Below are positions 6,623-59,288 of a stretch of 64,000 bases of DNA, piece after piece. The first letter of the stretch is position 1; the number at the start of each line of letters is the position of its first letter. The notes beneath the pieces were generated by a model. It was not told where the DNA came from. It did not search any database and saw only the letters and a list, made by a program, of their open reading frames with translations. A program made the position numbers and the translations under genes. This DNA comes from a virus (taxonomy: Duplodnaviria > Caudoviricetes), in the IMG/VR virus record IMGVR_UViG_3300025890_003315, positions 11,907-75,906 of that record, one strand, 5' to 3'.

Positions 6623-6635
6623 TGAAATTTCGTTA

Positions 6636-14132: not shown

Positions 14133-14133
14133 T

Positions 14134-23590: not shown

Positions 23591-24676
23591 ATGTTTAAGT
23601 CCCTCAACTTACCAATAAATTCGGTCAGTTTTGGTCAAGTGTCAACTGCCCTGCTTCGTAAATTCTACGAGGCAGGGCTTTCGCCTAATCTTTTTACAAT
23701 CGGACAAGTAGACTTATCTTCTCAAAAGCAGGATAAAGACTTTGTTGCTTGGATTCAAGATTGTGTGAATAAAGCTGGCAAAAAGCACTCTAGAGATGTT
23801 CCAATTTTTAAATTGTGGCATATCATGCAGTCTCTTGAGTCTTTCAGCAAAGAACAAGTTCTTTTTACATTCTATGAATTGGATCAACCAACAGAGTTGG
23901 AACTTAATATCTTAACTAACAATAAAAAAGTTTGCGTATCTTCAAACTACACAAAACAAGTTTTTGAAACTTTCGGATTATCAAATGTTCAATATATCCC
24001 ACTTTTCTTTGATAAAAGTAACTTTAATAAAACAAGCAAAGAATATCACCCAGAAAGAATAGTTTTCAATATTGCTGGAAAATTCGAACATAGAAAACAT
24101 CACACCAAAGCTATTAGAACGTGGTTAAACAGGTATGGTAATAACAATGAGTATTTTCTTCAGTGTGCTATTTATAATCCTCATTTAAAACCAGAAGATA
24201 ATCAAAAGATCATCAATGAAATAACTCAAGGAAAACAATTTTTTAATATTAATTTCCTTAGCAGAATGGAGCAAAATCAAGCTTATAACGATTTTCTTAA
24301 TTCAGGAGATATCATCATAGGGGCTTCTGGAGCAGAGGGATGGGGCTTACCTGAATTTCAGAGTGTATGTTTAGGTAAACACGCTGTTATTATGAACGCA
24401 CATTCTTACAAAGATTGGGCGAATAAAGACAACGCTTGTTTGTTTGAGCCAAATAGCAAGGTTCCAGCTTATGACAACATGTTCTTCAAACAAGGCCAAG
24501 AAATCAATCAAGGCAATATTTTTGATTTCAGTCCTGATAACCTTATTGACGCTTGCGAAAGAGCAGTACAAAGAGTTAAAGACCAAAAAGAAAATACGAA
24601 AGGTCTAGAACTTCAAGAAAAATTCTCTTTAGACTTTTTCTATGAGAATATAAAATCTTTGTATGCCTCTTTATAG
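23591..24676 (+). CDS. Glycosyltransferase, GT-B (GT4-like)
   Basis: GKFEHRKH and SGAEGWGLPEFQS..LGK..V (EX7E-like region). Confidence 0.85.
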   Translation: MFKSLNLPINSVSFGQVSTALLRKFYEAGLSPNLFTIGQVDLSSQKQDKDFVAWIQDCVNKAGKKHSRDVPIFKLWHIMQSLESFSKEQVLFTFYELDQPTELELNILTNNKKVCVSSNYTKQVFETFGLSNVQYIPLFFDKSNFNKTSKEYHPERIVFNIAGKFEHRKHHTKAIRTWLNRYGNNNEYFLQCAIYNPHLKPEDNQKIINEITQGKQFFNINFLSRMEQNQAYNDFLNSGDIIIGASGAEGWGLPEFQSVCLGKHAVIMNAHSYKDWANKDNACLFEPNSKVPAYDNMFFKQGQEINQGNIFDFSPDNLIDACERAVQRVKDQKENTKGLELQEKFSLDFFYENIKSLYASL

Positions 24677-27070: not shown

Positions 27071-27110
27071 AAAGCCTCTCGTTACACAAAACGGGAGGCT
27101 TTTTTATTTT
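27071..27110 (+). terminator. Rho-independent terminator after nrdJ
   Basis: AAGCCTCTCGTT-ACACAA-AACGGGAGGCTT followed by a T-rich tail. Confidence 0.85.
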
Positions 27111-27829: not shown

Positions 27830-27857
27830 TTGACATTTTCATAGTACCACGTATAAT
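27830..27857 (+). promoter_or_regulatory. Sigma70-type promoter for the glycan operon
   Basis: TTGACA-16-TATAAT with the GTG start 5 nt downstream. Confidence 0.8.
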
Positions 27858-27862: not shown

Positions 27863-28753
27863 GTGAAAGTTTTTGTATGTGGTATCACTCAAAATCAGCT
27901 TAATAACATTACTGGTTTAGTAAAGTCGTCACAAGACTATGTTGACGGCTTTATTTTTGTTGATGGTTTATCAACTGATGGCACGTTTGAATTTCTAGAA
28001 GCCAATAAAAAAGAAGGTAAAATCATCCAAAGAGAATGGTCTAACGATCATGATCTTCAAATGAATCTTTTTCTCAGATCGAACGTCATGAAAAATGGCG
28101 ACTGGTTCTTTGTAAGAGATAGTACGGAAAGAGTTTCTGAAAATTTCTTAAAAAACATAAAGCTTTCAATCAAAGATTTTGAGCTTCAAGGCGTCACTTC
28201 GCTTTATATTCATAATAAAATTTTCCTTTGCAAGTATTCCGACTACCTTTATTTTAACGGAAGTCCGCATTGGGGTCTTCACGGCATTCAAGGTAAATCT
28301 GTTTCTCTTGATGCAGAGGATTCATTATATAAGAACAAGCTTGATCTTTTTGAATCAGATGTAAGACAAGATAGAGGAGAGGGTTGGCAAATCAATCAAA
28401 ATATAAAATATTATTTTTGCTACGGTCGATCAAATAATCAGTTGATGCACTATTACGACAATGGCAAAACTCCAGAACTATACAAACAAAAAGAAGGTGA
28501 TAGAATAAATTTTAGAAATATTTGTTTCAATTTAGGCATCGAATTTTCACTTTCTAGCTTAAAGCAGTTTATCGAACAAAACGGAATATTAAATAATGAT
28601 CTTCTGCCATTTTTTAAAAATGAAATTCTATTGAAAAATTGGTATAGATTTAACATTTTAGATCATTCAGAGGCGGAAATAAATGACTCCAATTTTTTTA
28701 ACACAGAGAAAGCTAAATGGGAAACTAATTGGGAGTTCCAAGCTATAAAATGA
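27863..28753 (+). CDS. Glycosyltransferase, GT-A (GT2-like)
   Basis: VFVCGIT.N....I...V......D..IFVDG.STDGT.E and W.F..DS.E. Confidence 0.8.
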   Translation: MKVFVCGITQNQLNNITGLVKSSQDYVDGFIFVDGLSTDGTFEFLEANKKEGKIIQREWSNDHDLQMNLFLRSNVMKNGDWFFVRDSTERVSENFLKNIKLSIKDFELQGVTSLYIHNKIFLCKYSDYLYFNGSPHWGLHGIQGKSVSLDAEDSLYKNKLDLFESDVRQDRGEGWQINQNIKYYFCYGRSNNQLMHYYDNGKTPELYKQKEGDRINFRNICFNLGIEFSLSSLKQFIEQNGILNNDLLPFFKNEILLKNWYRFNILDHSEAEINDSNFFNTEKAKWETNWEFQAIK

Positions 28754-29481
28754 ATCAGGATTTTTATTTAAATTATAGAGAAGCAAAGTCTTTCTATTGC
28801 GCTGTAGATATGGGGGACTTGGTATATTCTTTGCTTTTCGCTAAATATAAAAATGTTGACACAATTTATCTGGACGATACTAAAAAAGGAATTAGCAATA
28901 GAAATTTTAATGAAGCGTCTAGAAAATTTATCGAACCACTTTTATTGTCTCAACCTTATATAAGAAAAATAGAGAAATATACAAATCAAGTTTTTGATAT
29001 AAACTACGGAGAGCATCAAAAAGCGGATGTTGTAGTCGGAACAAACCTAACAGCATTTCATGCCAGCAAATTTAATTTAGAGTGTGATTCAAAAGAAGTT
29101 AATGAAAGTTGGCTTGAATGTCCATCAACTGATACTGGTAAAAATATAGTGATAAATAGATCTCTCAGGTACAGAGGAGATGCTAATTTTTATTTAGATT
29201 TCTTTAAACATATAAATCCGCAGAAATGTGTTTTTGTTGGATTGGAAGAAGAATACGAAGATTTCATTAAAACATTTAGGTATCCAGTAGATTACAAGGC
29301 GAGCGAAAACGCCTATGAATTAATGATGGCAATAAATTCTTGCGATGTGTTTTTTGGCAATGAATCTATTTCGTGTGCCATCGCTAAAGGGCTTGGGAAA
29401 ACTTGTTTTGTTGAGTTGTGTAGACAAGCAGCGAACTACATTTTTACGGGCAACAAAAAAATAAATTATTTTGGAATATGA
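28750..29481 (+). CDS. GT9 (heptosyltransferase)-like protein
   Basis: DMGDL.YSL at the N-terminus and FVG...E...F...FFGNES...AIA.GLG at the C-terminus. Confidence 0.6.
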   Translation: MNQDFYLNYREAKSFYCAVDMGDLVYSLLFAKYKNVDTIYLDDTKKGISNRNFNEASRKFIEPLLLSQPYIRKIEKYTNQVFDINYGEHQKADVVVGTNLTAFHASKFNLECDSKEVNESWLECPSTDTGKNIVINRSLRYRGDANFYLDFFKHINPQKCVFVGLEEEYEDFIKTFRYPVDYKASENAYELMMAINSCDVFFGNESISCAIAKGLGKTCFVELCRQAANYIFTGNKKINYFGI

Positions 29482-30185
29482 AAATCGCTTTACTAAACAT
29501 TTATACTGAAAACATAAAACAATTAGCTGTTATAACAACTGAATACAATAAAAGGAAATATTGCGAAAAGCATGGATATGATTTACTTGTTAAAACAAAA
29601 GATTTTTCATATAAAGATTTCGGATTTGAAAAAATTAAATTTGTCCTAGACACAGTTAAGTCTAACAAGTACGACTGGATTTTGTGGGTTGGTTCAGATA
29701 CTATGATCACTAACTACAACATCAAAGTAGAACATTTAATTGATGAAGAGAAAAGTTTTATTATCGCTAACGATGTTTGGGATTTCAATTCAGATGTTTT
29801 CTTAATTAAAAATCATCCACGTTCTATAGAGTATTTTGAAGAAATTTTATCACTACATGATAAATATATAGACGAAAATGGTAAACCAAGAGATCTTGGG
29901 GTTAGGCTCCCAGATGGAGGAGCTAGATGTTGGGCAGAACAAGAAGCAATGATAGACTTAAAAGAAAAATATAAAGATGCTATTAAAATAGTTCCACAAA
30001 AAATATTAAACTCTTATTTATATCATTTGTATCCTTCTCAGTGGCATCAAAAAGGTTTAGACTGCGAAGGCTATGATGGAAGGTGGAGTGAGGGCGATTT
30101 TATTGTGCATTGGCCGGGAATGAACAATGAACTAAGATTAAATCTAGCAGTAAATTTTATACCAAAGGTTAAAGGAGATGAGTAA
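29478..30185 (+). CDS. Nucleotide-diphospho-sugar transferase (GT34-like)
   Basis: NKRKYCEKHGYD, YDWILWVGSDTMITN, NSDVFLIKN, EQEAM, GDFIVHWPG. Confidence 0.8.
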   Translation: MKIALLNIYTENIKQLAVITTEYNKRKYCEKHGYDLLVKTKDFSYKDFGFEKIKFVLDTVKSNKYDWILWVGSDTMITNYNIKVEHLIDEEKSFIIANDVWDFNSDVFLIKNHPRSIEYFEEILSLHDKYIDENGKPRDLGVRLPDGGARCWAEQEAMIDLKEKYKDAIKIVPQKILNSYLYHLYPSQWHQKGLDCEGYDGRWSEGDFIVHWPGMNNELRLNLAVNFIPKVKGDE

Positions 30186-31485
30186 TGATACTTCTATTTC
30201 GCAGCTTGTAAGTGAAAGTCTGCAAAATAAAAAAAAGTGGATAAAAGGCGAAGATTGGGTCCAGTATGCTGGCCCATTCTTTTCTAACGAAGAATACGAA
30301 GCTGCTATTAATTCTATTTTAAACGGCTGGCTCGTTATGGGCAATGATTGTTTAAAATTCGAAAGCAAGTTTAGTAAATATTTGGGAAAAAATCATGGAG
30401 TTTTAACTAACAGCGGATCAAGCAGTAACTTACTTATGGTTAGCGCACTTTCTTCAAAAAGAGCCTATGCGCTTCCTAAAGGATCAAAAGTTATTACTCC
30501 AATTGCTGGATTTCCCACAACCTTAAATCCCATCTTACAAAATGGTTTTGATCCAGTTTTTGTAGACATTGAACTTGAAACATTGAATCTTGATTTAGAT
30601 CAAGTTGAAGAAGCCGCTAAAGCCGGGGCTAAAGCTATTGTTTTTGCTCACGTACTTGGGAACACGACTGATATCGATAGACTTCTTAGCATAGTAAAAG
30701 AATATGGGCTAATTTTCCTAGAAGACTGCTGTGACGCCTTGGGATCTACATACGATGGAAAGCCGCTTGGCTCTTTCGGAGACATGTCTAGCTGTAGCTT
30801 CTACCCAGCGCACCATATAACGATGGGAGAAGGGGGATACGTAGCCTGTAAAGATAAAAATCTTGAAATCATAGTTAGGAGTTTTAGAGAATGGGGCAGA
30901 GGATGCTTTTGTGTAGGCAAAAAAGCTAATTTGCTCAAAAATGGCTCTTGTGGAAAAAGATTCTCTAATTGGCTGGAAGCTTTTCCAGACAAAGTATTCG
31001 ATCATAAATATATTTATGATGAAATAGGATATAACTTGAAACCAATTGAACTTCAAGGTAGCATTGGATTAAAACAGCTTGATAAACTAGATCAGATTCA
31101 TTCTTTAAGAAAGAAGAACTACTCAAAGCTATTTTCCATATTCAAGCCGTATGAAGAACATTTTATTCTTCCAGTAGCCAGAAAAAAAGCTGATCCGAGT
31201 TGGTTCGCATTTCCCATTACCATCAAAGACGATGCTCCATTCCAAAGGTTTGATTTATGCAATCACCTTGAGTCAAACAAAATACAAACAAGAACTTATT
31301 TTGGTGGGAATCTTGGTTTACAGCCAGCTTATAAAGATGTGATTTCAACAGAAAAAGCTTTGACATTTAAAAATGCTACGAAAGCAACTACAGATACATT
31401 TTTTCTTGGAACTAGTCCAGTAATAACAGATGAGCAACTCGACTATATAGAAGAAATCGTAAATTCTTTTTTTAGTAAATTATGA
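30178..31485 (+). CDS. rfbH: NDP-4-keto-6-deoxyglucose 3-dehydrase (E1, RfbH/DdhC; PMP and Fe-S)
   Basis: NSGSSSNLL, FAHVLGN, EDCCDALGS, FYPAHHITMGEGG (His replacing the PLP Lys), and the Fe-S motif WGRGCFC...GSC. Confidence 0.92.
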   Translation: MSNDTSISQLVSESLQNKKKWIKGEDWVQYAGPFFSNEEYEAAINSILNGWLVMGNDCLKFESKFSKYLGKNHGVLTNSGSSSNLLMVSALSSKRAYALPKGSKVITPIAGFPTTLNPILQNGFDPVFVDIELETLNLDLDQVEEAAKAGAKAIVFAHVLGNTTDIDRLLSIVKEYGLIFLEDCCDALGSTYDGKPLGSFGDMSSCSFYPAHHITMGEGGYVACKDKNLEIIVRSFREWGRGCFCVGKKANLLKNGSCGKRFSNWLEAFPDKVFDHKYIYDEIGYNLKPIELQGSIGLKQLDKLDQIHSLRKKNYSKLFSIFKPYEEHFILPVARKKADPSWFAFPITIKDDAPFQRFDLCNHLESNKIQTRTYFGGNLGLQPAYKDVISTEKALTFKNATKATTDTFFLGTSPVITDEQLDYIEEIVNSFFSKL

Positions 31486-32453
31486 AAGTCGTATACGTAA
31501 CAGGATGTCTTGGATTTATAGGTTCTTATGTTACAAGGCTGTGCCTCCAAAAAGGTTGGTATGTAAAGGGTGTAGATAAAATCACCTATGCAGCCAATAA
31601 AAACCTTTTAAATGAATTCAATAAATACTCTAATTTTTCATTTGTCAATTGCGACATAAACGATTTAAAGTTTTTGTACGACTGTGATTACTTTATCAAC
31701 ACAGCAGCGGAAACTCATGTTGGCAATTCAATTGTAGATAGTACTGACTTTGTTAAATCAAACATTGATGGCGTTCATAATATTTTAAATCTTTTCAGAA
31801 GCTATAGACAAGAGAATAACCATAAACCAGTATTCCTGCATTTTAGCACTGACGAAGTTTATGGGGACATAGACGAAGGCGAACATACTGAGACAGATCT
31901 TTTGAAACCAAGCAATCCATATTCTGCCACAAAAGCTGCTGCTGATATGTTGATCTTGGCTTGGGCAAGAACATACAACATAAACTACGTTATCGTAAGA
32001 CCAACAAATAATTATGGAATAGGTCAATATGTAGAAAAATTGATCCCAAAGTCAGTAAAATTTCTTTCTTTGGATAGAAAAATTCCACTTCATAACAATG
32101 GTTCACCAGTTAGGAATTGGCTTCATGCTGAAGATACCGCAAATGGAGCGATCAAAATAATAGAGTCTGAAGTTATAAATGAAGTATTCAATATATGTGG
32201 AGGATACGAGCAAACTAATTACCAAACAGTAGAAAAAATAATCAAACATTTTTACGCTATAGATGGAAAACAAGCGTTATCTCAAGATCAAATTGACAAA
32301 AATTTAGATTTTACTTACAGTAGGGTTGGACAAGATGTTAGGTACGCTCTAAATGATAATAAACTAAGATCTATTGGATGGAGTCCCAAACATAATTTTG
32401 ACAATGATATCCACGATATAGCAAAATATTATAAAAATACATTTATATGGTAA
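31482..32453 (+). CDS. rfbB: dTDP/NDP-glucose 4,6-dehydratase
   Basis: VTGCLGFIGS, AAETHV, FSTDEVYG, PYSATKA, RPTNNYG..Q..EKLIP. Confidence 0.9.
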   Translation: MKVVYVTGCLGFIGSYVTRLCLQKGWYVKGVDKITYAANKNLLNEFNKYSNFSFVNCDINDLKFLYDCDYFINTAAETHVGNSIVDSTDFVKSNIDGVHNILNLFRSYRQENNHKPVFLHFSTDEVYGDIDEGEHTETDLLKPSNPYSATKAAADMLILAWARTYNINYVIVRPTNNYGIGQYVEKLIPKSVKFLSLDRKIPLHNNGSPVRNWLHAEDTANGAIKIIESEVINEVFNICGGYEQTNYQTVEKIIKHFYAIDGKQALSQDQIDKNLDFTYSRVGQDVRYALNDNKLRSIGWSPKHNFDNDIHDIAKYYKNTFIW

Positions 32454-34198
32454 AAATTAGTGATACAATAGCGGACTTTTTAGTTAAGCAAGGCATCGAA
32501 GTTGTTTTTGGAATTATAGGTTCGGCTAATTCATATATCTATGACTCAATAGATAAGAGGACTGGTATTAAAATTGTTCCTACCCATCATGAGCAAGCTG
32601 CCGTAATGGCAATGGGAGCTTATTATAGGTCCACTGGAAAAATGTCAGCAGCCTTAGTTACTGCTGGTGGAGGGTCATCAAATGCATTTACGGGCATACT
32701 TTCTAATTGGGCGGATTCAATACCCGGAATAATCATAGCAGGACAAGAGCAGACGCACTACATCGATGAATATAAAGACATGAGGATGTATGGCATTCAA
32801 GGGTATGATTCAGTTGAAACTTATAAAAAATGCACTAAATTATCTATACGTCTAACTAAAGATAATGTAATCAAAACTTTAGCATTAGCTTATAAAATCA
32901 CAAATAGCCAGCGCCCCGGCCCAGTATATCTAGAAGTACCATTTGATACACAAAGTCAAATGGTAGAAGAAGTCAAATTATCTGAGTCAAGCGATGCTAT
33001 AGAAATTCCAAATAAAGAAGCAGAATATATTATTAGTAAATTAAACATGTCAAAACGGCCATTAATTCTAGGTGGTCATGGAGTAAAATTGTCACATGCG
33101 GAAGATTTATTTAAAAAATTGGTTGACAAACACAGTATCCCTACAGTATTGACTTGGTCCGCTGTTGACTTATTAGCTACAGATAATCCTAATAATTTTG
33201 GTAGACCGGGGGTACAAGGGCAGAGAGCGGCTAACTTTATTGTTCAAAATAGCGATTTATTAATAGTCTTAGGCAGCAGACTCTCTCTGTTGCAAACAGG
33301 GTACTCCAGAAAAGATTTTGCGCCAAAAGCAGAAATAATTCATGTTGATATCGACCCAACCGAAACTAAAAAATTTAATGGAAAAAATTTTAATATAGAT
33401 GTCAATTTATTACTAAAAGAATTTGACAAGCTTGATTCTAGAATTGAAACTAACATAGACGACTGGAGACGTTACTGCGAGAATATAAAAAATGAATACC
33501 CACTAGTTATGCCAGAGCATCTCTCTGATCCAACTAATTCATATACATTCATTGATAAATTATCTAAGCTGCTGCCTGACAATTATACTGTTGTAACAGA
33601 TATGGGGACCGCTTTACTTAGTGGATTCTATGGTTTTAATATAAAATCGAATCAAAAAATGTTCACTTCGCTGGGACTAGGAGAAATGGGATATGGGCTA
33701 GCGGCGGCAGTAGGTGCTGGATTTGGAGATAAACCAGTTCTATGCTTAAACTGTGATGGTGGAATGATGATGAATCTGCAAGAGCTTCAGACGATAAAAA
33801 CGCATAATCTACCAGTCAAAATAGTCATATTTAACAATGATGGATACTTAATGATCAAGCATACACAAAAAATGCTTTTTGAAGGTCACAAGACATGCGT
33901 AGACAAGGAGACTGGAGTTGAACTACCCGATTACAAGAAGGTGGCGGAAGCATTTGGTTATTCATATTATAAAGAATCTCAAATCAGTGATTTTTTGAGC
34001 AGCCCAAACCAAGCAATTATGGAGGTATTTATGAGTCCAAATCAAGAATTTATACCTAAAGTGAAAGGTATGAAGCAGGAAGACAACACTATTAAAGCTG
34101 GTTTACTGGAAGAGATGTCCCCACTACTTCCACTAAAAAAAATAGAACAAGCAATGATAGCAGGAATCAATGAACGAAGTAGGCTAGCAAAAAGATGA
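32447..34198 (+). CDS. ThDP-dependent enzyme, acetolactate-synthase-like (YerE-type C-branching candidate)
   Basis: HHEQAAVMAMGAYYR, VTAGGG..NA.TG, RPGPVYLE, and GLGEMGYGL...DGGMMMNLQEL...IFNN (ThDP motif). Confidence 0.88.
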   Translation: MVKISDTIADFLVKQGIEVVFGIIGSANSYIYDSIDKRTGIKIVPTHHEQAAVMAMGAYYRSTGKMSAALVTAGGGSSNAFTGILSNWADSIPGIIIAGQEQTHYIDEYKDMRMYGIQGYDSVETYKKCTKLSIRLTKDNVIKTLALAYKITNSQRPGPVYLEVPFDTQSQMVEEVKLSESSDAIEIPNKEAEYIISKLNMSKRPLILGGHGVKLSHAEDLFKKLVDKHSIPTVLTWSAVDLLATDNPNNFGRPGVQGQRAANFIVQNSDLLIVLGSRLSLLQTGYSRKDFAPKAEIIHVDIDPTETKKFNGKNFNIDVNLLLKEFDKLDSRIETNIDDWRRYCENIKNEYPLVMPEHLSDPTNSYTFIDKLSKLLPDNYTVVTDMGTALLSGFYGFNIKSNQKMFTSLGLGEMGYGLAAAVGAGFGDKPVLCLNCDGGMMMNLQELQTIKTHNLPVKIVIFNNDGYLMIKHTQKMLFEGHKTCVDKETGVELPDYKKVAEAFGYSYYKESQISDFLSSPNQAIMEVFMSPNQEFIPKVKGMKQEDNTIKAGLLEEMSPLLPLKKIEQAMIAGINERSRLAKR

Positions 34199-35058
34199 AA
34201 ATAAAAGCTGCAATACTAGGTACAGGTAATATAGGTACAGACTTACTCATTAAAGCTTTAAAAACAGACTTTATTGAATTAGTAGCATTCGTAGGAAGAA
34301 GATTAGATTCTAGTGGAATAAGTATAGCTAGAAACAAAAACGTAAATACTTCTGATCAAGGGATAAAATACTTTATCGATAATCCTAAGTGTTGCGACAT
34401 TGTTTACGACTGCACAAACGCGATAGACGCTAGAACTCATTCCGAGATATTTAAACAACAAGGAATAAAAGTCATTGATTTGACGCCAGCAAAAGTTGGA
34501 GATATGTGTGTCCCAGATATAAATAGCGAAATCATATTAACAGATATGAATATAAATATGATTACCTGCGGAGGACAAGCGTCTATACCAATGCTTCACT
34601 TGCTAGCAAAACACTGTAAAGGATTAGAGTATATTGAAATTGTATCTCAAATAGCTTCTAAAAGTGCTGGCATGGCCACCAGAATAAATGTTGATAACTA
34701 TATTAACACTACAAAAAAAGCTATTTCAAAATTCACTGGTTGCAATAATATGAAAGTTATTCTAAACTTAAATCCAGCAGAGCCTTGCGTAGACATGCAA
34801 ACTACCATGTTTATCAAATCAAAATATGTTGAATATGAAAATTTAACAGAAAAGCTGCTAAACAAAATTGAAGAGTTGAAAGCTTATATACCGCATTACG
34901 AATTAATTGTTCCCCCAACACCAGATGATAGCGGAATTCTAACCTTAAGCATAAAGGTTAAAGGCGCTGGAGATTATTTGCCTGAATATGCTGGCAATTT
35001 AGATATCATAAATTGTTCTGCAATTAAAGTAACAGAAAAATTAAAAGAAATTTTATGA
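34195..35058 (+). CDS. mhpF: Acetaldehyde dehydrogenase (acylating)
   Basis: AILGTGNIGTDL, IDLTPA..G, NMITCGGQASIP, IAS.SAG..TR.N, GAGDYLPEYAGNLDI. Confidence 0.95.
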   Translation: MKIKAAILGTGNIGTDLLIKALKTDFIELVAFVGRRLDSSGISIARNKNVNTSDQGIKYFIDNPKCCDIVYDCTNAIDARTHSEIFKQQGIKVIDLTPAKVGDMCVPDINSEIILTDMNINMITCGGQASIPMLHLLAKHCKGLEYIEIVSQIASKSAGMATRINVDNYINTTKKAISKFTGCNNMKVILNLNPAEPCVDMQTTMFIKSKYVEYENLTEKLLNKIEELKAYIPHYELIVPPTPDDSGILTLSIKVKGAGDYLPEYAGNLDIINCSAIKVTEKLKEIL

Positions 35059-36053
35059 AAAAAGTTACAATAACAGACTCAAGCTTGAGAGACGGGAATC
35101 ATAGCGTCAAACACACTATAAGCTTAGACAGTATAGAAAAATATTGTAAATTTGCTGATAACGCAGGAATACCAATCGTTGAAGTTGGACACGGCAATGG
35201 CCTAGCAGCGTCTTCCCTATTGATAGGGAAATCTCCTAACACAGACGAAGAAATGTTGACTGTAGCAAGAAAAAATTTAAAAAATTCTAAATTAGGAATA
35301 CATACGATACCGGGGTTATCTACAATTGACGATATTAAGCTTGCGATTAACTGCGGGGTAGATGTTTTTAGAGTCGCTACGCATTGTACTGAAGCAACAC
35401 TATCGAAGACCCATATAGAGTACCTTAAAAAAAATGAAAGGACTGTCTATGGAGTTTTAATGATGACCCCTTTAGCAAGCTCAGACGAATTAGTTGAACA
35501 AGCTAAAATTATGGAAAGCTATGGAGCAGAAGCGGTAATCATAATGGATTCAACTGGAACATATTTGCCAAATAACGTAAAAGAAAGGATTGAGAAGCTC
35601 AAAGCATCTACCAATATCAGAATAGGGTTCCATGCTCACAACAACTTAGGCTGCGCAATTAGTAACTCTTTAATAGCAGCAGAATGTGGAGCAGATTTAA
35701 TTGACGCATGTATTCGCGGGTTTGGAGCGGGGGCAGGAAACGCCGCTTTAGAAGTGTTACTGCCAGTATTGGAAAAAAGTGGTTTTGAAACTGGAATTTG
35801 CTTTAAGCAGACAATAAAAGAAGCGGATAGCGCAATGGATTATTTGGTTACCAAAGTCCCATTAGTAAGTCCGATTAATATACTGACAGGGTTAGCTAAA
35901 TTATTTTCTGGATTCGAAAAGCCAATCATTAAAGCGTCAAAACTATATGGCATAGAATACTCTTCTTTGATATTTGAGCTAGGCAATAGAAAACTAGTCG
36001 CAGGACAAGAAGACTTAATTTTAGAGATAGCTCAAAAACTAAAAACAAAATGA
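35055..36053 (+). CDS. mhpE: 4-hydroxy-2-oxovalerate aldolase
   Basis: DSSLRDGNH, EVGHGNGL, FRVATHCTEA, DSTG, GFHAHNNLG, GFGAGAGN, LVAGQED.I. Confidence 0.95.
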   Translation: MKKVTITDSSLRDGNHSVKHTISLDSIEKYCKFADNAGIPIVEVGHGNGLAASSLLIGKSPNTDEEMLTVARKNLKNSKLGIHTIPGLSTIDDIKLAINCGVDVFRVATHCTEATLSKTHIEYLKKNERTVYGVLMMTPLASSDELVEQAKIMESYGAEAVIIMDSTGTYLPNNVKERIEKLKASTNIRIGFHAHNNLGCAISNSLIAAECGADLIDACIRGFGAGAGNAALEVLLPVLEKSGFETGICFKQTIKEADSAMDYLVTKVPLVSPINILTGLAKLFSGFEKPIIKASKLYGIEYSSLIFELGNRKLVAGQEDLILEIAQKLKTK

Positions 36054-36826
36054 GAGTATTAATAACAGGCGGCGGCGGATATATCGCTAAATCTATTCAC
36101 GCAGCACTGAAGGATAATTATGTTATAGTTAACCCAAACAGACAAGAACTTGATTTAACCTGCAACCACTCGATTAAAAGTTTTTTTGATAAACATGGAT
36201 ATTTTGACGCTGTTATTCATACTGCAATAAAAGGAGGAAGCAGACTAAATGTGGATGATTGGTCTGTTTTAGACACTAATCTTTCGATGTATTACAACCT
36301 ATGTTCCAAAGAAAGGCATTTTAACAAGTTTATTAACATAGGATCAGGCGCAGAAATTTACTCCCCAGACACTCCTTATGGACTCAGTAAAAAAGCGATA
36401 GCTAAATCCATAGAATCGAAAAGCAATAAATATATAAATCTTAGGATATTTGCGGTTTTTGATGAAAATGAGCTTGACACAAGATTCATAAAGGCTAATA
36501 TTAAACGAGCAATAAACGGCGAACCATTAGAAGTATACGAAGATAAGTATATGGATTTCTTTTACATGGAAGATTTTATAAAAGTGATCAAAGCTATTCT
36601 AAATTATAAAAATCATCAAAAAGAAATAAACTGCGTCTATGAAAAAAAATATAAACTTTCCGAAATAGCAAGCACAATAAATAACTTAAGTACTCATAAA
36701 GTGCCGATTTCTATTGCTCAACGTCAATCAGAAAATTATACCGGAGACTTTAATTTATCAATTCCTTATGTCGGTATGGAAAAAGGGATTGAGATAGTTT
36801 ACAAAAAAATGATTACTCAACAATGA
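36050..36826 (+). CDS. NAD-dependent epimerase/reductase (SDR; YerF-like candidate)
   Basis: LITGGGGYI, SGAE, PYGLSK (YxxxK), LR.F.VF. Confidence 0.8.
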   Translation: MRVLITGGGGYIAKSIHAALKDNYVIVNPNRQELDLTCNHSIKSFFDKHGYFDAVIHTAIKGGSRLNVDDWSVLDTNLSMYYNLCSKERHFNKFINIGSGAEIYSPDTPYGLSKKAIAKSIESKSNKYINLRIFAVFDENELDTRFIKANIKRAINGEPLEVYEDKYMDFFYMEDFIKVIKAILNYKNHQKEINCVYEKKYKLSEIASTINNLSTHKVPISIAQRQSENYTGDFNLSIPYVGMEKGIEIVYKKMITQQ

Positions 36827-36985: not shown

Positions 36986-37891
36986 ATGATATACGACTGT
37001 TTTTTATTTTTTAACGAAAATGATTTACTTGAAGTAAGACTAAATCAGCATAATAAATTTGTAGATAAATTTATTATCGTAGAAGCAGCAGAGACGCATA
37101 CTGGAATCAAGAAAGATTTGTGTTTCGATCATAAAAGATTTGAGAGGTTCTCTGATAAAATTATTTATAGATCTATTCATTCATTTGAAGATGAAATCAA
37201 AAAAAATCCAAATTTAATATCACAAAATATATCAAATTTCATAACCCCGCAAAAACAATTGAATCATCAAGATTGGATCAGGGATAATTTTCAAGCGGAA
37301 TATATAACAAAAACGCTACTTGAACAAAATCCAAATCAAGAAGATATAGTATTATTTAGCTGTTTAGATGAAATTTTAAACGAAGAAGCTTTTATAGAGT
37401 GCCTATCAGTATTTAGCACTAATCAAAAGTTTTTTTTAAAATCAAAAATATTCAATAAATACGTTTTAGAAAAAAAGGTCGATCCTGTATTTTCATTTGT
37501 TTTAGATACTTATGCTTATAAACTTAATTTGTTCCATAAACAAGTTCCAGTTGGAACCATGACAAAAGTTTCTAATCTAGCTTTTATGAAATGGACTGAA
37601 TTGAGATATTTCGCTTGCACAACGCATGAATTCATAGAAAACGCTGGATGGCACTTTACATTTTTAGACAACACAGATGGCGAAAAAGCGTTGATGAAAT
37701 ATAAAAGCTGGGCGCATTCAAAAGACATTTCTTCAAATAGAAAAAGATATTTTGATATACAAACAAAGGAAGAAGCAGTAAACACTGTATTTAAAGATTA
37801 TAATTTAAAAAAAGTAAACATCACAAAACAAAGCTACCCTAAATTTATAATTGAAAATTTAGAATTTTTCTCAGATTACATATACAAATAA
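36986..37891 (+). CDS. GT17-like (beta-1,4-GlcNAc transferase family) glycosyltransferase
   Basis: MIYDCF.FFNE.DLLE.RL.......D.FIIVE...THTG..K, W.R.NFQ, D+I.F.S.LDEI, AGWHFT, K.KSWAH. Confidence 0.85.
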   Translation: MIYDCFLFFNENDLLEVRLNQHNKFVDKFIIVEAAETHTGIKKDLCFDHKRFERFSDKIIYRSIHSFEDEIKKNPNLISQNISNFITPQKQLNHQDWIRDNFQAEYITKTLLEQNPNQEDIVLFSCLDEILNEEAFIECLSVFSTNQKFFLKSKIFNKYVLEKKVDPVFSFVLDTYAYKLNLFHKQVPVGTMTKVSNLAFMKWTELRYFACTTHEFIENAGWHFTFLDNTDGEKALMKYKSWAHSKDISSNRKRYFDIQTKEEAVNTVFKDYNLKKVNITKQSYPKFIIENLEFFSDYIYK

Positions 37892-37892: not shown

Positions 37893-38276
37893 ATGATAAA
37901 CGTATTTACAAATGGGTGTTTCGATGTAATACACGTTGCTCTCATCAGACTTCTTGAATTTGCAAAGAAACAGGGAGATCATTTAATAGTCGGACTCAAT
38001 AGTGACCGAAGCGTAAAGTCCCTAAAAGGAAACGGGCGACCGTTTTTTCATGAACAAGACAGGAAAGAGTTCTTAGAATCTATTCGTTTTGTTGATGAGG
38101 TCATTATTTTCAATGAAGAAACTCCATACGAGTTGATAAAAAAGCTTAGGCCAGATATAATTATCAAAGGTGGTGATTATAAAGACGAAGATGTAGTCGG
38201 ATCTGACATCGCTAAAGTAGTAATTTTTCCATTTGAAAATGGCTATTCTACTTCAAATATATTAAAAGATAAATGA
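37893..38276 (+). CDS. RfaE/HldE-like cytidylyl/adenylyltransferase with degenerate HxGH motif
   Basis: FTNGCFD.IH, LIVGLNSD.SV..LKG..RP, KGGDY, STS. The HxGH motif reads HVAL. Confidence 0.8.
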   Translation: MINVFTNGCFDVIHVALIRLLEFAKKQGDHLIVGLNSDRSVKSLKGNGRPFFHEQDRKEFLESIRFVDEVIIFNEETPYELIKKLRPDIIIKGGDYKDEDVVGSDIAKVVIFPFENGYSTSNILKDK

Positions 38277-38851
38277 AAAATATTATTCACATTGGATGCA
38301 ATGATGGAAATGACCATGTTTTTAAATTTGTTTGCGAAAATAAAAAAGACATTGGCGAAATAATTTTGATCGACGCTAACTTTAATGTAATTTCAAAAGC
38401 TAGAGAAACATACAAGGAAATTAAGAACACAACATTTTTAAATTTAGCGATTACCCCAATTGATATAAACGGTTGCGAAATCGAAATATTTACTCCAATC
38501 ACAGATGACTCATCAAATTTTGTTTCTGTAAATAGGGATTTTGTTAGAGCGCACGTTCACCATAATAATATACTTTCGACAAAAGTAAGAACCATGAGTC
38601 TGCAAAATTTAATCGACCAATACAAAGATACAACCCATTTGTTCTTAGATACAGAAGGTCTTGACGTACTCAACGTATTTAGCGTGGACTTCGATAAAAA
38701 TAAGATCGAGGAATTAACTTTTGAATACATACACTCTGATGGAATCGTAAGACACGGCAAAAGGCTAAATTCATTGCTAGGGTATCTTGAACAATTTGGG
38801 TTTTCGTTTGAAGTTGTACAATACAATGTAATAGCTAAAAGAAAAACGTGA
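38273..38851 (+). CDS. FkbM-like methyltransferase
   Basis: IHIGCNDG, LIDAN, LFLDTEGLD, FEYIH. Confidence 0.7.
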   Translation: MKNIIHIGCNDGNDHVFKFVCENKKDIGEIILIDANFNVISKARETYKEIKNTTFLNLAITPIDINGCEIEIFTPITDDSSNFVSVNRDFVRAHVHHNNILSTKVRTMSLQNLIDQYKDTTHLFLDTEGLDVLNVFSVDFDKNKIEELTFEYIHSDGIVRHGKRLNSLLGYLEQFGFSFEVVQYNVIAKRKT

Positions 38852-39915
38852 AAAAAATAATCATCACAGGAATTTTAGGTCAAGACGGCGCGAACATGGC
38901 AGAATACCTTCTGTCTTTGTATGATGAACTCGGTCTTGAAGAACATGATTATGAGATTTATGGCATGATGCGTAGATCTGCAAACCCAAATTTTAAAAAC
39001 ATCGAAAAAATTAAAAATCATCCAAGATTCAATTTACAGTTCCTTGATCTTGGTGATAGCGCAAGTATTGATACAGCAGTAAAAGAGATTCAGTCAGATT
39101 ATTTTATTAATTTTGCCGCAAATAGTTTTGTTGGTATCAGTTGGAAAATGCCAGAGCAAGTTATGAATGTAAACGCTCTTGGTGTTTTGCGCTGCCTTGA
39201 AGCCATTCGCAAATTCAAACCAGATTGCCGATTTTACAGCGCAGGTTCAAGTGAAGAATGGGGCAATGTCGATTATAGCCCACAAGACATCGCTCATCCA
39301 ATCAAGCCTCGTAGCCCTTATGGCGCGTCAAAAGCGGCAGCAAGACATCTTGTAAAGGTTTACAGAGAGTCCTACGGTCTCTATGCTGTTCACGGTATCC
39401 TCTTTAACCACGAAGGAACAAAGCGTGGAGAAGAATTTGTAACAAGAAAAATTTCAAAAGGAGTAGCTAGAATCAAAAACTCTATTGATAGAGCTATTGG
39501 GCTTGGAGATGAAATTTATATTGAACCAATCGAACTTGGAAATCTTGACGCAAAAAGAGACTGGTCAGATTCCAGAGACTTCGTAGAAGGTGTTTGGTTA
39601 ATGCTCAATCAAGATACCCCAAAAGATCACATTCTAGCAAGTGGAGAAACACATAGCATCAGAGAATTTGTCGAAAAAGCTTTTGCTGTTGCTGGAATCA
39701 ATGGATCTTGGCACGGACAAGGTCTCGATGAGGTATTTGTGACTGGTCAACAAACTTTAGTACGAATCAATTCAGATTTTTACAGACCGGCAGAAGTTGA
39801 TCTTCTTTTGGGTGATTCAACCCCAATACGCGAAGAACTTGAATGGGAGCCGAAAATTTCATTTGACAAATTGGTAGAATCGATGGTACTATATGACATC
39901 GAGAACCATGCCTGA
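38848..39915 (+). CDS. gmd: GDP-mannose 4,6-dehydratase
   Basis: ITGILGQDG, AGSSE..G, PRSPYGASK, GILFNHE..RG..FVTRKI, LGNLDAKRDW, RPAEVDLL.GD. Confidence 0.95.
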   Translation: MKKIIITGILGQDGANMAEYLLSLYDELGLEEHDYEIYGMMRRSANPNFKNIEKIKNHPRFNLQFLDLGDSASIDTAVKEIQSDYFINFAANSFVGISWKMPEQVMNVNALGVLRCLEAIRKFKPDCRFYSAGSSEEWGNVDYSPQDIAHPIKPRSPYGASKAAARHLVKVYRESYGLYAVHGILFNHEGTKRGEEFVTRKISKGVARIKNSIDRAIGLGDEIYIEPIELGNLDAKRDWSDSRDFVEGVWLMLNQDTPKDHILASGETHSIREFVEKAFAVAGINGSWHGQGLDEVFVTGQQTLVRINSDFYRPAEVDLLLGDSTPIREELEWEPKISFDKLVESMVLYDIENHA

Positions 39916-40429
39916 TTACGAGATAGTAACACGACAACAAGCCAATAAATTTCTGGCGTACGTAAAAGGCGACTCTACCGTACAAACAAACCATCTACTT
40001 TTCTCCGTAGAAAGCTCTCTTTCTGTCCAGAAAGACAAGCTGCTGCAAACTGAACTTTATTACGATAAAGAGTCTGGTTTGATGGATGAGCCAGTCGCCA
40101 AATCTTTTTTTGAAATAGAAAAGAATATTGCGATGTGCCAGATTTTAAAACTGGGACTGAATAGTCTTCCTGTGCAGAAAAGTAGGCCAAAGCTTTTTGT
40201 AAAAGCGTTTCCAGATGCATGTAGGCAATTAGTGAAACTCTTTGATCTCAAAGAAACAGAATCCGAATTACTCTACGCTAAAAAGCTTCTTTCAGAATAT
40301 AAGAAACCAAAGCTTTGGAGCCAAATGGTAGCGGACAATCCAGAGTTAAAAATAAGAACATTGAGTTTCTTTTTTGACGGGGCAGGTAAAAAGTTTTTAG
40401 AAAAGCAGATTAAGAAATACGAATTATGA
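39908..40429 (+). CDS. Hypothetical protein
   Basis: Operon-packed ORF of about 173 aa. Confidence 0.6.
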   Translation: MPDYEIVTRQQANKFLAYVKGDSTVQTNHLLFSVESSLSVQKDKLLQTELYYDKESGLMDEPVAKSFFEIEKNIAMCQILKLGLNSLPVQKSRPKLFVKAFPDACRQLVKLFDLKETESELLYAKKLLSEYKKPKLWSQMVADNPELKIRTLSFFFDGAGKKFLEKQIKKYEL

Positions 40430-41514
40430 ATAATGTAAAAGAAAAACTAGATAGCATTCTCAAGCAAAAAGATAAAAAAGACCACGTTTATAACTTTGTA
40501 AAAGAAGTTGATTACAGAGTTTCTAGTGGCAGCTTGAAGTTAGATATTGAAATGGAAGGTGGTCTTGGCCCCGGCTTGGCTAGGTTTTCCGGTGGCACGG
40601 AATCAGGAAAGACTTCTTGTGCGCTTACTTTCGCAAAGTATCATCAAGAAACAGTCGAAAACGGTTTTGTTGTATATTTTAAAGCCGAAGGGCGACTGAG
40701 CAAAAAGATGCTTGAAAGGCACGGTTTGAACCCAGAAAAGCTGTACGTTGTTGAAACCAATGTTTACGAAGTTGTTATCGACACAATGCGTGAACTTGTA
40801 AACAACAATCCAGAAGAAACCAAGTATTTTTTTATTATTGACAGTGTAGATGGATGCATAAGAAAAGAGGATCTCGACAAAGGTACTCAAGAAGCTGTAA
40901 AAGTAGCTGGTGGAGCATTGCTTACTTCTGAATTTTTGAAACGCATGACCCTAAAACTCGGAAAGCTCGGTCATGTGTGCATTTTGATTCATCAAAACAG
41001 AAGCAAGATTCAACTCAATCAATACGAAAAGAAAGACCCGAATAACATCACTCAAAGTTCTGGCGGCAATGCTGGTTTGCATTATTCAGATTGGATTTTT
41101 GAGTTTATGGACAAAAACACCGAAAGCTGTAGAATTAGAGGCCCAAAATCAGAATCTGCTGATGCAGATCCAAAGGGTGAAATCATTGGTCATTTTTGCA
41201 GAATCATTTTCAAGAAAAGTCCAAATGAAAAAACCAACAAGACTGTAAGCTATCCAGTAAGATATGGCACCAAAGGCGGTAACACTGTTTGGGTGGAATA
41301 TGAAATTTTACAGGTTTTACAGCAATTTGGATTCTTGAATAAAAGTGGTGCTTGGTTTAAGTTTGATGAAGACGCCCTTGAGCAACTTGAAAAAGCTGGA
41401 ATCAAAGATGTCAAAAATCAGTTTCAAGGTGAAGCCAACGCTTTGGCATACTTGTCAGAAAGAAAGGACTTAGTGGATTATTATTATGAGCATTTTAAGA
41501 CTACATTTTCATGA
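40426..41514 (+). CDS. recA: RecA/UvsX-like recombinase
   Basis: SSGSL.LD, GGTESGKT (Walker A), AEGR, FIIDSV, IHQ.R, SGGNA. Confidence 0.9.
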   Translation: MNNVKEKLDSILKQKDKKDHVYNFVKEVDYRVSSGSLKLDIEMEGGLGPGLARFSGGTESGKTSCALTFAKYHQETVENGFVVYFKAEGRLSKKMLERHGLNPEKLYVVETNVYEVVIDTMRELVNNNPEETKYFFIIDSVDGCIRKEDLDKGTQEAVKVAGGALLTSEFLKRMTLKLGKLGHVCILIHQNRSKIQLNQYEKKDPNNITQSSGGNAGLHYSDWIFEFMDKNTESCRIRGPKSESADADPKGEIIGHFCRIIFKKSPNEKTNKTVSYPVRYGTKGGNTVWVEYEILQVLQQFGFLNKSGAWFKFDEDALEQLEKAGIKDVKNQFQGEANALAYLSERKDLVDYYYEHFKTTFS

Positions 41515-41927
41515 GACTGTATAATGTAAGAGGTAGGTTAACAAATAAAAATGTTAGTCCATACATCATAAATTGGAACGCAGATTCACGATCAAAAATG
41601 CAAAAACAAGTCAAAGATTTTTTGCGTGAATTTTGGTCTGGCTGCGTGGTTTATGAAGAGTTCCCGGTTTACGGTACTCGACTCAAGGTTGATATCCTAA
41701 ATGCCTCTAGAATGCAAGCTGTAGAAGTTCATGGGGACCAACACATCAAGTTCAACAAATTCTTTCATAGTAACTCAAGAGAAAATTATTTAAATTCTAT
41801 TTCTAGAGACACGCAAAAATATGAGTGGCTAGAAGCTAACAGCTTTAAGGTGATTGAAATATATCAAAAAGATATAAAAAAATTATCAAAAGATTGGTTC
41901 GAACATAAGTTTGGCGTTTTACTTTAA
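41511..41927 (+). CDS. Vsr/DUF559-like endonuclease
   Basis: EEFPV......VD.......VEVHG.QH..F..FFH....D..K..W. Confidence 0.7.
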   Translation: MRLYNVRGRLTNKNVSPYIINWNADSRSKMQKQVKDFLREFWSGCVVYEEFPVYGTRLKVDILNASRMQAVEVHGDQHIKFNKFFHSNSRENYLNSISRDTQKYEWLEANSFKVIEIYQKDIKKLSKDWFEHKFGVLL

Positions 41928-41930
41928 CTT

Positions 41931-41936
41931 GTGTAA
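41931..41936 (+). promoter_or_regulatory. GTGTAA motif
   Basis: 8 nt before GTG 41945. Confidence 0.6.
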
Positions 41937-41944
41937 AATATTTT

Positions 41945-42217
41945 GTGGAGAAATTTATATTTCCAAAAGCAGTTTTAGAACAAGTGAACGAATGTTCAAA
42001 CGGTGGTTTTGTCTTGTTCAATTTTGATATAGATAAAAACCCTCAAATTTTTTCTAACTTTGATGACTCAATGTCCGCTTTAGCTTTGCAAAGCTATATC
42101 GATATTTGTAGCAAGACTTTTCAAAAGATGAATTATCAAATAGCCATGAGCGAAGCTTCTTCTCCACCTTCTAGCGAAGATTGTGACGACGATGACAAGG
42201 ACGACGAAGTTTCTTGA
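41945..42217 (+). CDS. Hypothetical protein with acidic tail
   Basis: 90 aa behind a GTGTAA motif. Confidence 0.7.
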   Translation: MEKFIFPKAVLEQVNECSNGGFVLFNFDIDKNPQIFSNFDDSMSALALQSYIDICSKTFQKMNYQIAMSEASSPPSSEDCDDDDKDDEVS

Positions 42218-42242
42218 CTTTTTCCCAAAAGTCGCTCATACT
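42214..42242 (+). promoter_or_regulatory. Sigma70-type promoter of the replication operon
   Basis: TTGACT-17-CATACT with the ATG 8 nt downstream. Confidence 0.6.
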
Positions 42243-42250
42243 ACATCTTC

Positions 42251-45673: not shown

Positions 45674-45689
45674 AATAATAATACAAAAT

Positions 45690-46436: not shown

Positions 46437-47070
46437 TCATCTTTTAAGATTTGCTAAAGATAAAAAGTTCACATTCATTGATTGTGAGACTTTTAACTTG
46501 TGCTTAAACGAATGCAACAATCTTCCTTGGCAGGTTGCCGTAATCGAGACTCTTGGCGCAGAAAAAATTGAAGAGAAACATGATTTTTATCTTGATTGGG
46601 ACACAGACTTAACGATTTCTGAAGAAGCTAAAAAAATCACAAGATTCAGTCAAACAAAGTTTGACGAGAGAAAAATCTCTGCTGAAATTTGCGCTAAAAA
46701 AATTTATTCAATTTTAAATAACTCTGATTATATTTTAGGGCATAACCTTCTTGGTTTTGATGTTTACTTGCTCCGAATTGTTTTTTCTAAATTTGGCTTG
46801 GATTGGAAATTTATGATGCCAAAGATTTTAGATACACTTGCCTTAATGAAGGGTATTCGTTTGGAGTCTAAATACAGCAAGGATGTTGACCTATTGACTT
46901 TTCAATACAAACAGATTCATACAATCAAAAAGAATTTAAAGTGTTCTTTGGGAGTGTTAGGAAAAGAGTTTGATATAAAGCACAATTATGATAGTTTGCA
47001 TGATGCGTTAGTAGATTTGGAGCTAAATTTGAAAGTGTGGAATAAAATCAAGTATTTAATTGAAATATGA
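46429..47070 (+). CDS. DnaQ-like DEDDh 3'-5' exonuclease
   Basis: FIDCET, GHN..GFD, DTL, HDA.VD. Confidence 0.85.
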   Translation: MDDHLLRFAKDKKFTFIDCETFNLCLNECNNLPWQVAVIETLGAEKIEEKHDFYLDWDTDLTISEEAKKITRFSQTKFDERKISAEICAKKIYSILNNSDYILGHNLLGFDVYLLRIVFSKFGLDWKFMMPKILDTLALMKGIRLESKYSKDVDLLTFQYKQIHTIKKNLKCSLGVLGKEFDIKHNYDSLHDALVDLELNLKVWNKIKYLIEI

Positions 47071-56441: not shown

Positions 56442-56464
56442 TCAGAAAAACTGATGAAGACGCA

Positions 56465-59272: not shown

Positions 59273-59288
59273 AGATTCATGTCTTTGA

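Follow-up and report, generated by a model that had tools for sequence, protein, structure and literature searches.

We here describe a set of six phage genes that would direct the synthesis of an acyl-branched sugar. The genes occupy positions 30178-36826 of a 64,000-nucleotide stretch (the window) of the IMG/VR virus record IMGVR_UViG_3300025890_003315 (Duplodnaviria; Caudoviricetes), and sequence comparisons lead us to regard them, with a probability of roughly 0.8, as a phage-borne variant of the erwiniose-type pathway. They encode, in order, an E1-type 3-dehydrase, a nucleoside diphosphate (NDP)-glucose 4,6-dehydratase, a thiamine diphosphate (ThDP)-dependent carboligase, an acylating acetaldehyde dehydrogenase, a 4-hydroxy-2-oxopentanoate aldolase and a short-chain dehydrogenase/reductase (SDR). 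As a preliminary description of this DNA had claimed, the six genes are contiguous and overlapping; all six open reading frames (ORFs) lie intact on the plus strand, and neighbours overlap by 4-7 bases, an arrangement of translational coupling. In profile searches with cut-offs, the family matches ran over nearly the full length of the genes. Sugars of this kind have so far been described only from bacterial cell-surface glycans, and the phage set most likely builds one.

We investigated the sugar half of the pathway by comparing the E1 homologue and the dehydratase with characterized enzymes and with the 78 loci that an IMG/VR pattern scan returned as carrying a relative of the ThDP enzyme (42-83% identity). 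The E1 homologue scored 463 bits against the RfbH model NF011936 (cut-off 423) and aligned with Yersinia E1 (PDB 3bcx, 350 bits; also 3bb8). The earlier reading of this protein as a His-type, Fe-S enzyme was confirmed by the alignment to 3bcx, in which the histidine of FYPAHHITMGEGG replaces the pyridoxal phosphate (PLP) lysine and four cysteines are aligned to the Cys-rich Fe-S stretches of Yersinia E1 (the ligands of which we take to be C193, C251, C253 and C261), with a 5-residue insertion in the loop. The enzyme is kept at an identity of at least 50% in 31 of the 78 viral loci. The exchange of the PLP lysine for histidine and the four-cysteine [2Fe-2S] motif have both been described as hallmarks of E1 (PMC8987622). 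The dehydratase gave its best model match to the deoxythymidine diphosphate (dTDP)-glucose type (TIGR01181, 280 bits, below the cut-off of 365), with only 78 bits for the cytidine diphosphate (CDP) type, and its PDB matches were all dTDP-glucose 4,6-dehydratases. An RmlB-like gene 55-72% identical to that of the window is present in 49 of the viral loci, in 44 of them directly 5' of the ThDP gene, and in one of 80 bacterial loci (L079). This single bacterial case, a 6.6-kb contig of an Ignavibacteria metagenome-assembled genome (MAG), nests within the viral subclade of the ThDP enzyme tree described below and is probably a mis-binned viral contig.

Of the complete route to NDP-4-keto-3,6-dideoxyhexose (DdhA, DdhB, DdhC/E1 and DdhD/E3), only E1 and an RmlB-type dehydratase were found. 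Tblastn searches for DdhA and DdhD/E3, run against all six frames of the window and against two related phage genomes that are nearly complete, yielded no homologue, and PF00175, a domain of E3-type reductases, was not found in five viral records. There is, nevertheless, a precedent in SpnQ: this E1-type enzyme works on a dTDP-sugar and needs no E3 of its own, since general ferredoxin or flavodoxin reductases suffice (PMC8987622). The RmlB-type dehydratase, the lack of DdhA and E3 and the SpnQ precedent thus make it more likely, as judged from the sequences, that the nucleotide is dTDP rather than CDP and that the sugar is primed by the host. The missing E3, together with the aminotransferase activity that SpnQ shows without a reductase (PMC8987622), would also be compatible with a branched sugar that has not undergone 3-deoxygenation, or with an amino sugar; the E1 homologue would then be a transaminase or idle, and the ThDP enzyme would branch NDP-4-keto-6-deoxyglucose, or the product would differ in some other way. 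We consider such an outcome improbable, since the dehydrase-type histidine (not lysine) and the Fe-S cysteines are conserved, the E1 is retained across the 31 viral loci and SpnQ itself is served by general reductases. The phage with the complete 162-kb genome G003 may activate its own sugar phosphate, as it encodes directly 5' of its dehydratase (L014:7182-8987) a 601-residue protein in which an NTP_transferase domain was recognized, together with a HAD-like match that was weak; a protein like this one was not found in the window.

We then analyzed the ThDP enzyme, the presumed branching enzyme of the pathway. The protein has three domains, and its PDB scores were 474 bits for JanthE (8rph), 251 bits for PpYerE and 230 bits for acetohydroxyacid synthase (AHAS). 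At the column of the GDG(X)24-27N motif it reads CDGG, with Cys in place of the first Gly. The ThDP motif LNCDGGMMMNLQELQT is the same in the window enzyme and JanthE, an identical 16-residue block being shared with 8rph, and the residues aligned to M406, Y297 and K567 of JanthE are kept in an alignment read by eye. An AHAS identity was not supported, as the best AHAS model gave 314 bits against a cut-off of 738 and no ilvH/ilvN-like small-subunit gene is adjacent. The preliminary description had proposed a phylogeny of the enzyme against the YerE/ErwE-type and AHAS clades. In a tree of 70 sequences (IQ-TREE in its quick setting, rooted on Escherichia coli IlvI), the window enzyme indeed fell within the YerE-like radiation and not with AHAS, but it belonged to neither the ErwE nor the YerE clade; it is a member of the clade of CDG-motif enzymes that includes JanthE (support 99), inside a mostly viral subclade (support 100), with L020 as its nearest neighbour (83% identity). 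The YerE clade was basal, the ErwE-like sequences fell in a GDG clade and E. coli IlvI formed a distant outgroup. Two other viral sequences nested beside JanthE, and viruses have therefore acquired the ThDP gene at least twice.

The motif of the ThDP enzyme goes together with its gene neighbourhood. Among 238 distinct homologues, an adjacent dehydrogenase-aldolase pair accompanied the CDG motif in 164 of 176 cases (12 without the pair) and the GDG motif in only three of 58 (55 without), and the pair flanks the ThDP gene in 69 of the 78 viral and 76 of the 80 bacterial relatives. JanthE takes 4-hydroxy-2-oxovalerate in vitro among other donors, its physiological substrates being stated as unknown (PMC12188165). 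An orthologue 98-99% identical to JanthE is encoded in Rugamonas rivuli (L176, 6175-13165), in a locus of the order DdhA-DdhB-E1-ThDP enzyme-acetaldehyde dehydrogenase-aldolase, and this cluster suggests that the physiological role of JanthE is erwiniose-type sugar branching.

JanthE, the closest characterized relative, also takes pyruvate and other keto acids in vitro (PMC12188165), and the chemistry of YerE and YerF is established. Both facts would suit a yersiniose-type C2 branch, for which the ThDP enzyme would use pyruvate like YerE and the SDR would reduce the resulting acetyl group, the dehydrogenase-aldolase pair serving another purpose. We hold this to be very improbable, because codon overlaps tie the pair to the ThDP gene and the pair accompanies the CDG enzymes as counted above, whereas in Yersinia the true YerE-type loci carry GDG enzymes and lack the pair; moreover, ErwE, which has the same neighbour genes, rejects pyruvate (PMC9306805). 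Separately, five viral loci (L043, L044, L051, L061 and L077) combine an RmlB-like dehydratase with a ThDP enzyme, of the GDG type in L061, but are without the dehydrogenase-aldolase pair, and presumably use another keto-acid donor.

The enzymes predicted to supply the donor were examined for their catalytic residues. The acetaldehyde dehydrogenase exceeded the cut-off of TIGR03215 (313 versus 282 bits), and its catalytic Cys is kept in the window and in all 198 relatives compared. The aldolase likewise exceeded that of TIGR03217 (338 versus 286 bits), and Arg16, Asp17, His20, His198 and His200 (BphI numbering), which bind pyruvate and the metal, are invariant; keto-acid chemistry is therefore retained. 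In an alignment of 197 cluster aldolases over the loci L001-L333, however, the two columns that correspond to Leu87 and Tyr290 of BphI have changed. The first is His in 196 sequences and Phe in one, and the second is Phe in 180, His in 16 (all viral) and a gap in one; the window enzyme has His and Phe, as does the ErwI-like aldolase of Pectobacterium versatile, while the catabolic enzymes E. coli MhpE and PDB 8ih7 have Leu and Tyr. BphI is strictly 4S-specific, its Y290F variant loses stereocontrol and the L87N/Y290F variant is 4R-specific (PMC3962088). By analogy with this mutagenesis of a homologue, the replacement of both residues, together with the R-configured donor of ErwE, supports an anabolic, 4R-producing role for the aldolase. 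The His87/Phe290 pair may thus serve as a candidate diagnostic that separates glycan-type 4R aldolases from the catabolic DmpG type. A role of MhpF and MhpE in degrading aromatic intermediates, with the ThDP enzyme as an acetolactate synthase, is suggested by the strong matches to MhpF/MhpE-type models, the moderate AHAS matches and the way virome papers take viral mhpE (PMC9554406, PMC13303688, PMC12482060), but is practically negligible, given that no hydratase, hydrolase or dioxygenase gene is nearby (unlike in the E. coli mhp operon), the ThDP enzyme stays far under the cut-offs of the AHAS models and has no small subunit beside it, the genes are wedged among sugar dehydratases, an NDP-sugar reductase and glycosyltransferases, and the aldolase lacks the Leu87/Tyr290 pair of catabolic enzymes.

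The last gene of the set encodes an SDR with the motifs TGGGGYIA (GxxGxxG) and YGLSK (YxxxK). A PDB sequence search gave no match for it. Its AlphaFold model (predicted local distance difference test, pLDDT, 96) was closest in a fold search to GDP-fucose synthase, GDP-heptose C4 reductases and RmlD. The modelled NDP-sugar reductase fold fits the role of the branch-carbonyl reductase that ErwF and YerF fill.

From these genes we infer the substrates, step order, nucleotide, stereochemistry and acceptor of the following scheme. Host-made NDP-glucose, probably dTDP-glucose, would be converted into NDP-4-keto-6-deoxyglucose by the RmlB-like 4,6-dehydratase, and E1 would then remove the 3-hydroxyl group to yield NDP-4-keto-3,6-dideoxyglucose; because no E3 is encoded, the electrons would come from a ferredoxin or flavodoxin reductase system of the host. 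In parallel, the dehydrogenase would reduce acetyl-CoA to acetaldehyde, which the coupled aldolase would condense with pyruvate to 4-hydroxy-2-oxopentanoate, probably the 4R enantiomer. The JanthE-type ThDP enzyme would decarboxylate this keto acid and transfer the 3-hydroxybutanoyl unit onto C4 of the keto sugar, and reduction of the branch carbonyl by the SDR would afford an NDP-3,6-dideoxy-4-C-(1,3-dihydroxybutyl)hexose, a C10 erwiniose-like sugar. Finally, the co-transcribed soluble glycosyltransferases would attach the sugar to an acceptor.

Much of this scheme had been anticipated. The preliminary description had MhpF and MhpE run anabolically to 4-hydroxy-2-oxovalerate, followed by C4-unit transfer by the ThDP enzyme and reduction by the SDR, and this part is supported by the gene linkage, the donor range of JanthE and the 4R-type aldolase signature, while the ErwE/YerE-type label of the carboligase has to be given up. 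Nor is the scheme a new idea as far as bacteria are concerned, since it equals the published erwiniose route (PMC9306805). In Pectobacterium atrosepticum, whose erwiniose cluster consists of ddhABCD and the genes for ErwE, ErwF, ErwJ and ErwI, ErwJ and ErwI were proposed to make (R)-4-hydroxy-2-oxopentanoate, which ErwE adds to CDP-4-keto-3,6-dideoxyglucose before ErwF reduces the branch (Steitz 2022, PMC9306805). This proposal was partly tested in vitro, where ErwE took 4-hydroxy-2-oxopentanoate as the donor and rejected pyruvate (PMC9306805).

The window shares with the erwiniose cluster an E1 route to NDP-4-keto-3,6-dideoxyhexose, a DmpF/DmpG-type pair, a YerE-like ThDP carboligase and a reductase. 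Our comparison with ErwE rests on a proxy, the P. versatile locus L258, which has the ErwE-F-J-I gene order (E1-ThDP enzyme-SDR-acetaldehyde dehydrogenase-aldolase), and whose dehydrogenase and aldolase are 47% and 50% identical to those of the window. In contrast, identity between the ThDP enzyme of the window and the ErwE-like protein is only 32%, and the window enzyme carries the CDG instead of the GDG motif and falls in a separate clade. The dehydratase is of the RmlB rather than the DdhB type, DdhA and DdhD/E3 are absent, the reductase is a shorter and distant SDR, and the genes stand in another order. Furthermore, the window version is phage-encoded, within an accessory island that holds soluble glycosyltransferases. 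JanthE of Janthinobacterium sp. HH01 (8rph/8rpi/8rpj) is closer, with about 41% identity, the CDG motif, a shared clade and an orthologue locus with E1, dehydrogenase and aldolase, but it is bacterial, its cluster contains DdhA/DdhB-type genes and the window enzyme lies in the separate viral subclade. Yersiniose A synthesis by YerE and YerF of Yersinia pseudotuberculosis resembles the proposed route in that a ThDP enzyme branches an NDP-4-keto-3,6-dideoxyhexose at C4 and an SDR then carries out a reduction, and its E1 is 40% identical; the YerE-type loci L270 and L273 differ in their GDG enzymes (about 30% identical to that of the window), the lack of the pair and the pyruvate (C2) donor. As for DmpFG, MhpFE and BphIJ, the phage pair agrees with them in fold, in domains including the DmpG communication domain, and in the catalytic Cys, Arg, Asp, His and metal ligands (PDB matches of 230-237 bits), but has His and Phe for Leu87 and Tyr290 of BphI and no meta-cleavage genes nearby, and is expected to work in the synthetic direction. 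The pathway type is thus already known from bacteria, and the viral form is a variant: its branching enzyme belongs to the CDG/JanthE clade, its dehydratase is of the RmlB type and its SDR is compact, DdhA and E3 are missing and the island is mobile. Neither the viral setting nor this variant of the erwiniose pathway appeared in the literature searched, which was in part judged by title and abstract.

Several points weigh against reading the six genes as an erwiniose-type pathway. The sugar-1-phosphate nucleotidyltransferase (of DdhA or RmlA type) and E3 are absent from the window and from the two near-complete related phage genomes, and the first and third steps therefore require functions that the host is assumed to supply. 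The nucleotide is ambiguous, since the E1 matches the CDP-type RfbH equivalog but the dehydratase the dTDP type. The SDR is only distantly akin to the YerF-like (Yersinia, blastp E value 5e-7) and ErwF-like (3e-5) reductases, and the breadth of JanthE towards keto acids, mentioned above, applies here as well. Finally, the pathway is predicted from gene sequences, and this phage is represented by the 64-kb window only.

We also surveyed the distribution of the cassette. The preliminary description had judged a virus that makes such a rare sugar to be highly unusual, yet the cassette turned out to be common among uncultured phages: in 69 of the 78 IMG/VR loci the dehydrogenase and aldolase genes adjoin the ThDP gene, and in 20 loci the flanks that were fetched contain the whole set of six. 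The contigs of these loci reach 326 kb and include one complete 162-kb genome with terminal repeats and some fragments of giant-virus MAGs. In four contigs of the latter kind (L040, L042, L045 and L050), the trio is rearranged, with the dehydrogenase next to the ThDP gene and the aldolase on the opposite strand, and the proteins are about 50% identical. Among GenBank phages, a blastn search with the cassette gave no match, and tblastn with the ThDP enzyme gave only AHAS-like matches of at most 32% identity, many of them on host-contaminated records.

Comparisons between phages indicated that the cassette moves. Two near-complete genomes, G002 and G003, have essentially nothing in common with the window except the cassette genes, whose proteins are 47-81% identical (the first five 59-81%). 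The few matches beyond these were the ribonucleotide reductase (RNR, 25% identity) and four small ORFs (34-54%), and neither structural nor DNA-replication genes are shared. In two distant relatives of the window lineage (L356 and L358), RNR is followed by RecA within about 1.3 kb, and the island is absent. In a sister contig (L339 and L340), 98% identical, the 3.4 kb 5' of the RfaE-domain-II-like gene hold two methyltransferases along with unknown genes, a place occupied in the window by the GT17-like gene and the last part of the cassette; the contig ends at this point, so a cassette further upstream is possible. It also lacks 38281-38835, the FkbM-like gene being deleted. Conversely, L344 has backbone proteins only 27-91% identical to those of the window but three glycosyltransferase genes at 96-99% (GTa 96%, GTb 97%). 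This pattern of absence, replacement and cross-phage sharing establishes that the island (positions about 27.2-40.4 kb, 13 kb in length) is accessory, variable and horizontally exchanged.

The features of the island are collected in Table 1. The coupled block extends beyond the six genes, as three glycosyltransferase-like genes (27863-30185) overlap into E1 to make nine overlapping genes in total. A Pfam search gave no match for the second of them, GTb. In the viral loci L065, L069 and L070, E1 is preceded closely by homologues of the GT34-like gene, and in L070 a homologue of the GT17-like gene (47% identical) follows the SDR. In the window, the genes behind the GT17-like gene are probably a second sugar module; its RfaE-domain-II-like and Gmd-like members scored 152 bits (TIGR02199, cut-off 181.5) and 337 bits (TIGR01472, cut-off 415), respectively, and the product may be a 6-deoxyhexose or a 6-deoxyheptose. 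Transmembrane (TM)-like segments were found in none of the proteins of the island.

Table 1. Features of the glycan island, in window coordinates (GT, glycosyltransferase; PMP, pyridoxamine phosphate)
Feature	Position	Strand	Basis or remark
Terminator-like hairpin	27071-27102		Closes the upstream RNR gene; consensus match only
Promoter-like site, TTGACA-16-TATAAT	27830-27857	+	12/12 consensus match only; directly 5' of the first glycosyltransferase-like gene
GTa, glycosyltransferase-like, first gene of the coupled block	27863-28753	+	Weak SunS-family GT match; without TM segment
GTb, virus-specific putative glycosyltransferase	28729-29481	+	Nearest Atlas clusters 'putative glycosyltransferase', at least 90% viral
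GT34-like (GMA12/MNN10 family) glycosyltransferase	29478-30185	+	PF05637, 55.6 bits; 8-base overlap with E1
E1-type NDP-4-keto-6-deoxyhexose 3-dehydrase (PMP, [2Fe-2S])	30178-31485	+	NF011936, PDB 3bcx
NDP-glucose 4,6-dehydratase, RmlB (dTDP-glucose) type	31482-32453	+	TIGR01181, PDB matches
YerE-like ThDP carboligase of the JanthE (CDG-motif) clade, predicted branching enzyme	32447-34198	+	PDB 8rph, tree
Acylating acetaldehyde dehydrogenase, DmpF/MhpF/ErwJ type	34195-35058	+	TIGR03215
4-Hydroxy-2-oxopentanoate aldolase, DmpG/MhpE/ErwI type, His87/Phe290 signature	35055-36053	+	TIGR03217
Short extended-SDR NDP-sugar ketoreductase, predicted YerF/ErwF role	36050-36826	+	258 residues; motifs, fold
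GT17-like glycosyltransferase	36986-37891	+	PF04724, 58 bits; after a 159-base gap
Rest of island: RfaE-domain-II-like nucleotidyltransferase, FkbM-like methyltransferase, Gmd-like 4,6-dehydratase, 178-residue unknown protein	37893-40429	+	TIGR02199, TIGR01472, PF01467, PF16363

The surrounding genes confirmed the phage setting given in the preliminary description. Tape measure, tail J and minor tail proteins at 13-14676 are those of a siphovirus-like tailed phage, and the island lies between RNR (at 25091) and a group at 40426-49619 that encodes a RecA-like protein, DnaB, primase, a nuclease, a PHP protein, an exonuclease and the DNA polymerase III (Pol III) alpha subunit; the window also holds dUTPase, dCMP deaminase and YopX genes. 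Further glycosyltransferases are encoded outside the island (50199-53257 and 23591-24676), comprising a 636-residue GT1/DUF4214 protein, a GT9-like protein and a PHROG glycosyltransferase. The dCMP deaminase has as neighbours at 55430-56974 an APS-kinase-like P-loop protein (PF01583, 53 bits), a small cupin and a pyrophosphatase of the inorganic type, which might contribute to a PAPS supply made by the phage for sulfating glycans. After the YopX gene, 59279-63519 encodes a DUF1501 protein and a 934-residue PSCyt1/PSCyt2/PSD1 protein of the planctomycete-cytochrome type, followed at 63559-63845 by tRNA-Ser, tRNA-Gly and tRNA-Pro. These genes recur at 98-99% identity on the IMG/VR contig 3300021964_010058 (L343), and the best bacterial relative of the DUF1501 protein, from a Verrucomicrobia single-cell genome, is only 36% identical. 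This region may be phage cargo or a host junction; 3' of the tRNAs on the sister contig, a PHROGs search gave no informative match.

Concerning the purpose of the sugar, the glycosyltransferases are soluble, some belong to families more familiar from eukaryotes and viruses, and neither a flippase nor a polymerase is encoded alongside. These features would fit a cytoplasmic acceptor such as virion proteins, although host envelope precursors are compatible with them too. Virion glycosylation, named in the preliminary description beside host-surface conversion and defence evasion, is thus a possible use, which we put forward tentatively. DNA glycosylation was set aside, as no deoxynucleoside monophosphate (dNMP) hydroxymethylase was seen among the annotated ORFs. 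The absence of membrane proteins from the island argues against seroconversion by a Wzx/Wzy route, although peripheral action on lipid-linked acceptors is still compatible with it.

The findings extend a rare chemistry of bacterial surface sugars, the ThDP-dependent long-chain branching of dideoxyhexoses, to viruses, with 69 IMG/VR contigs carrying the core trio, and they provide a physiological context for JanthE, a crystallized biocatalyst. Virome surveys take viral mhpE as a gene of aromatic degradation or amino-acid metabolism (PMC9554406, PMC13303688, PMC12482060). Given the gene context described here, viral mhpE-type genes, along with mhpF and 'acetolactate synthase' in such a context, should therefore be read as glycan genes, which corrects a recurring misannotation. 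In addition, the two-residue signature would separate glycan-type from catabolic DmpG aldolases and predicts an inverted stereochemistry. Going further, and rather speculatively, phages of several unrelated lineages might make a C10 erwiniose-like sugar and attach it by soluble virus-specific glycosyltransferases to virion proteins, with the hypervariable island swapped like the O-antigen loci of bacteria. If this is true, there would be glycan 'serotypes' of phages, and the His87/Phe290 aldolases would be a natural 4R-specific branch of DmpG. That the island can be present, absent or replaced in phages otherwise nearly identical suggests that a phage-made glycan is under diversifying selection, and such selection would bear on host recognition and defence.

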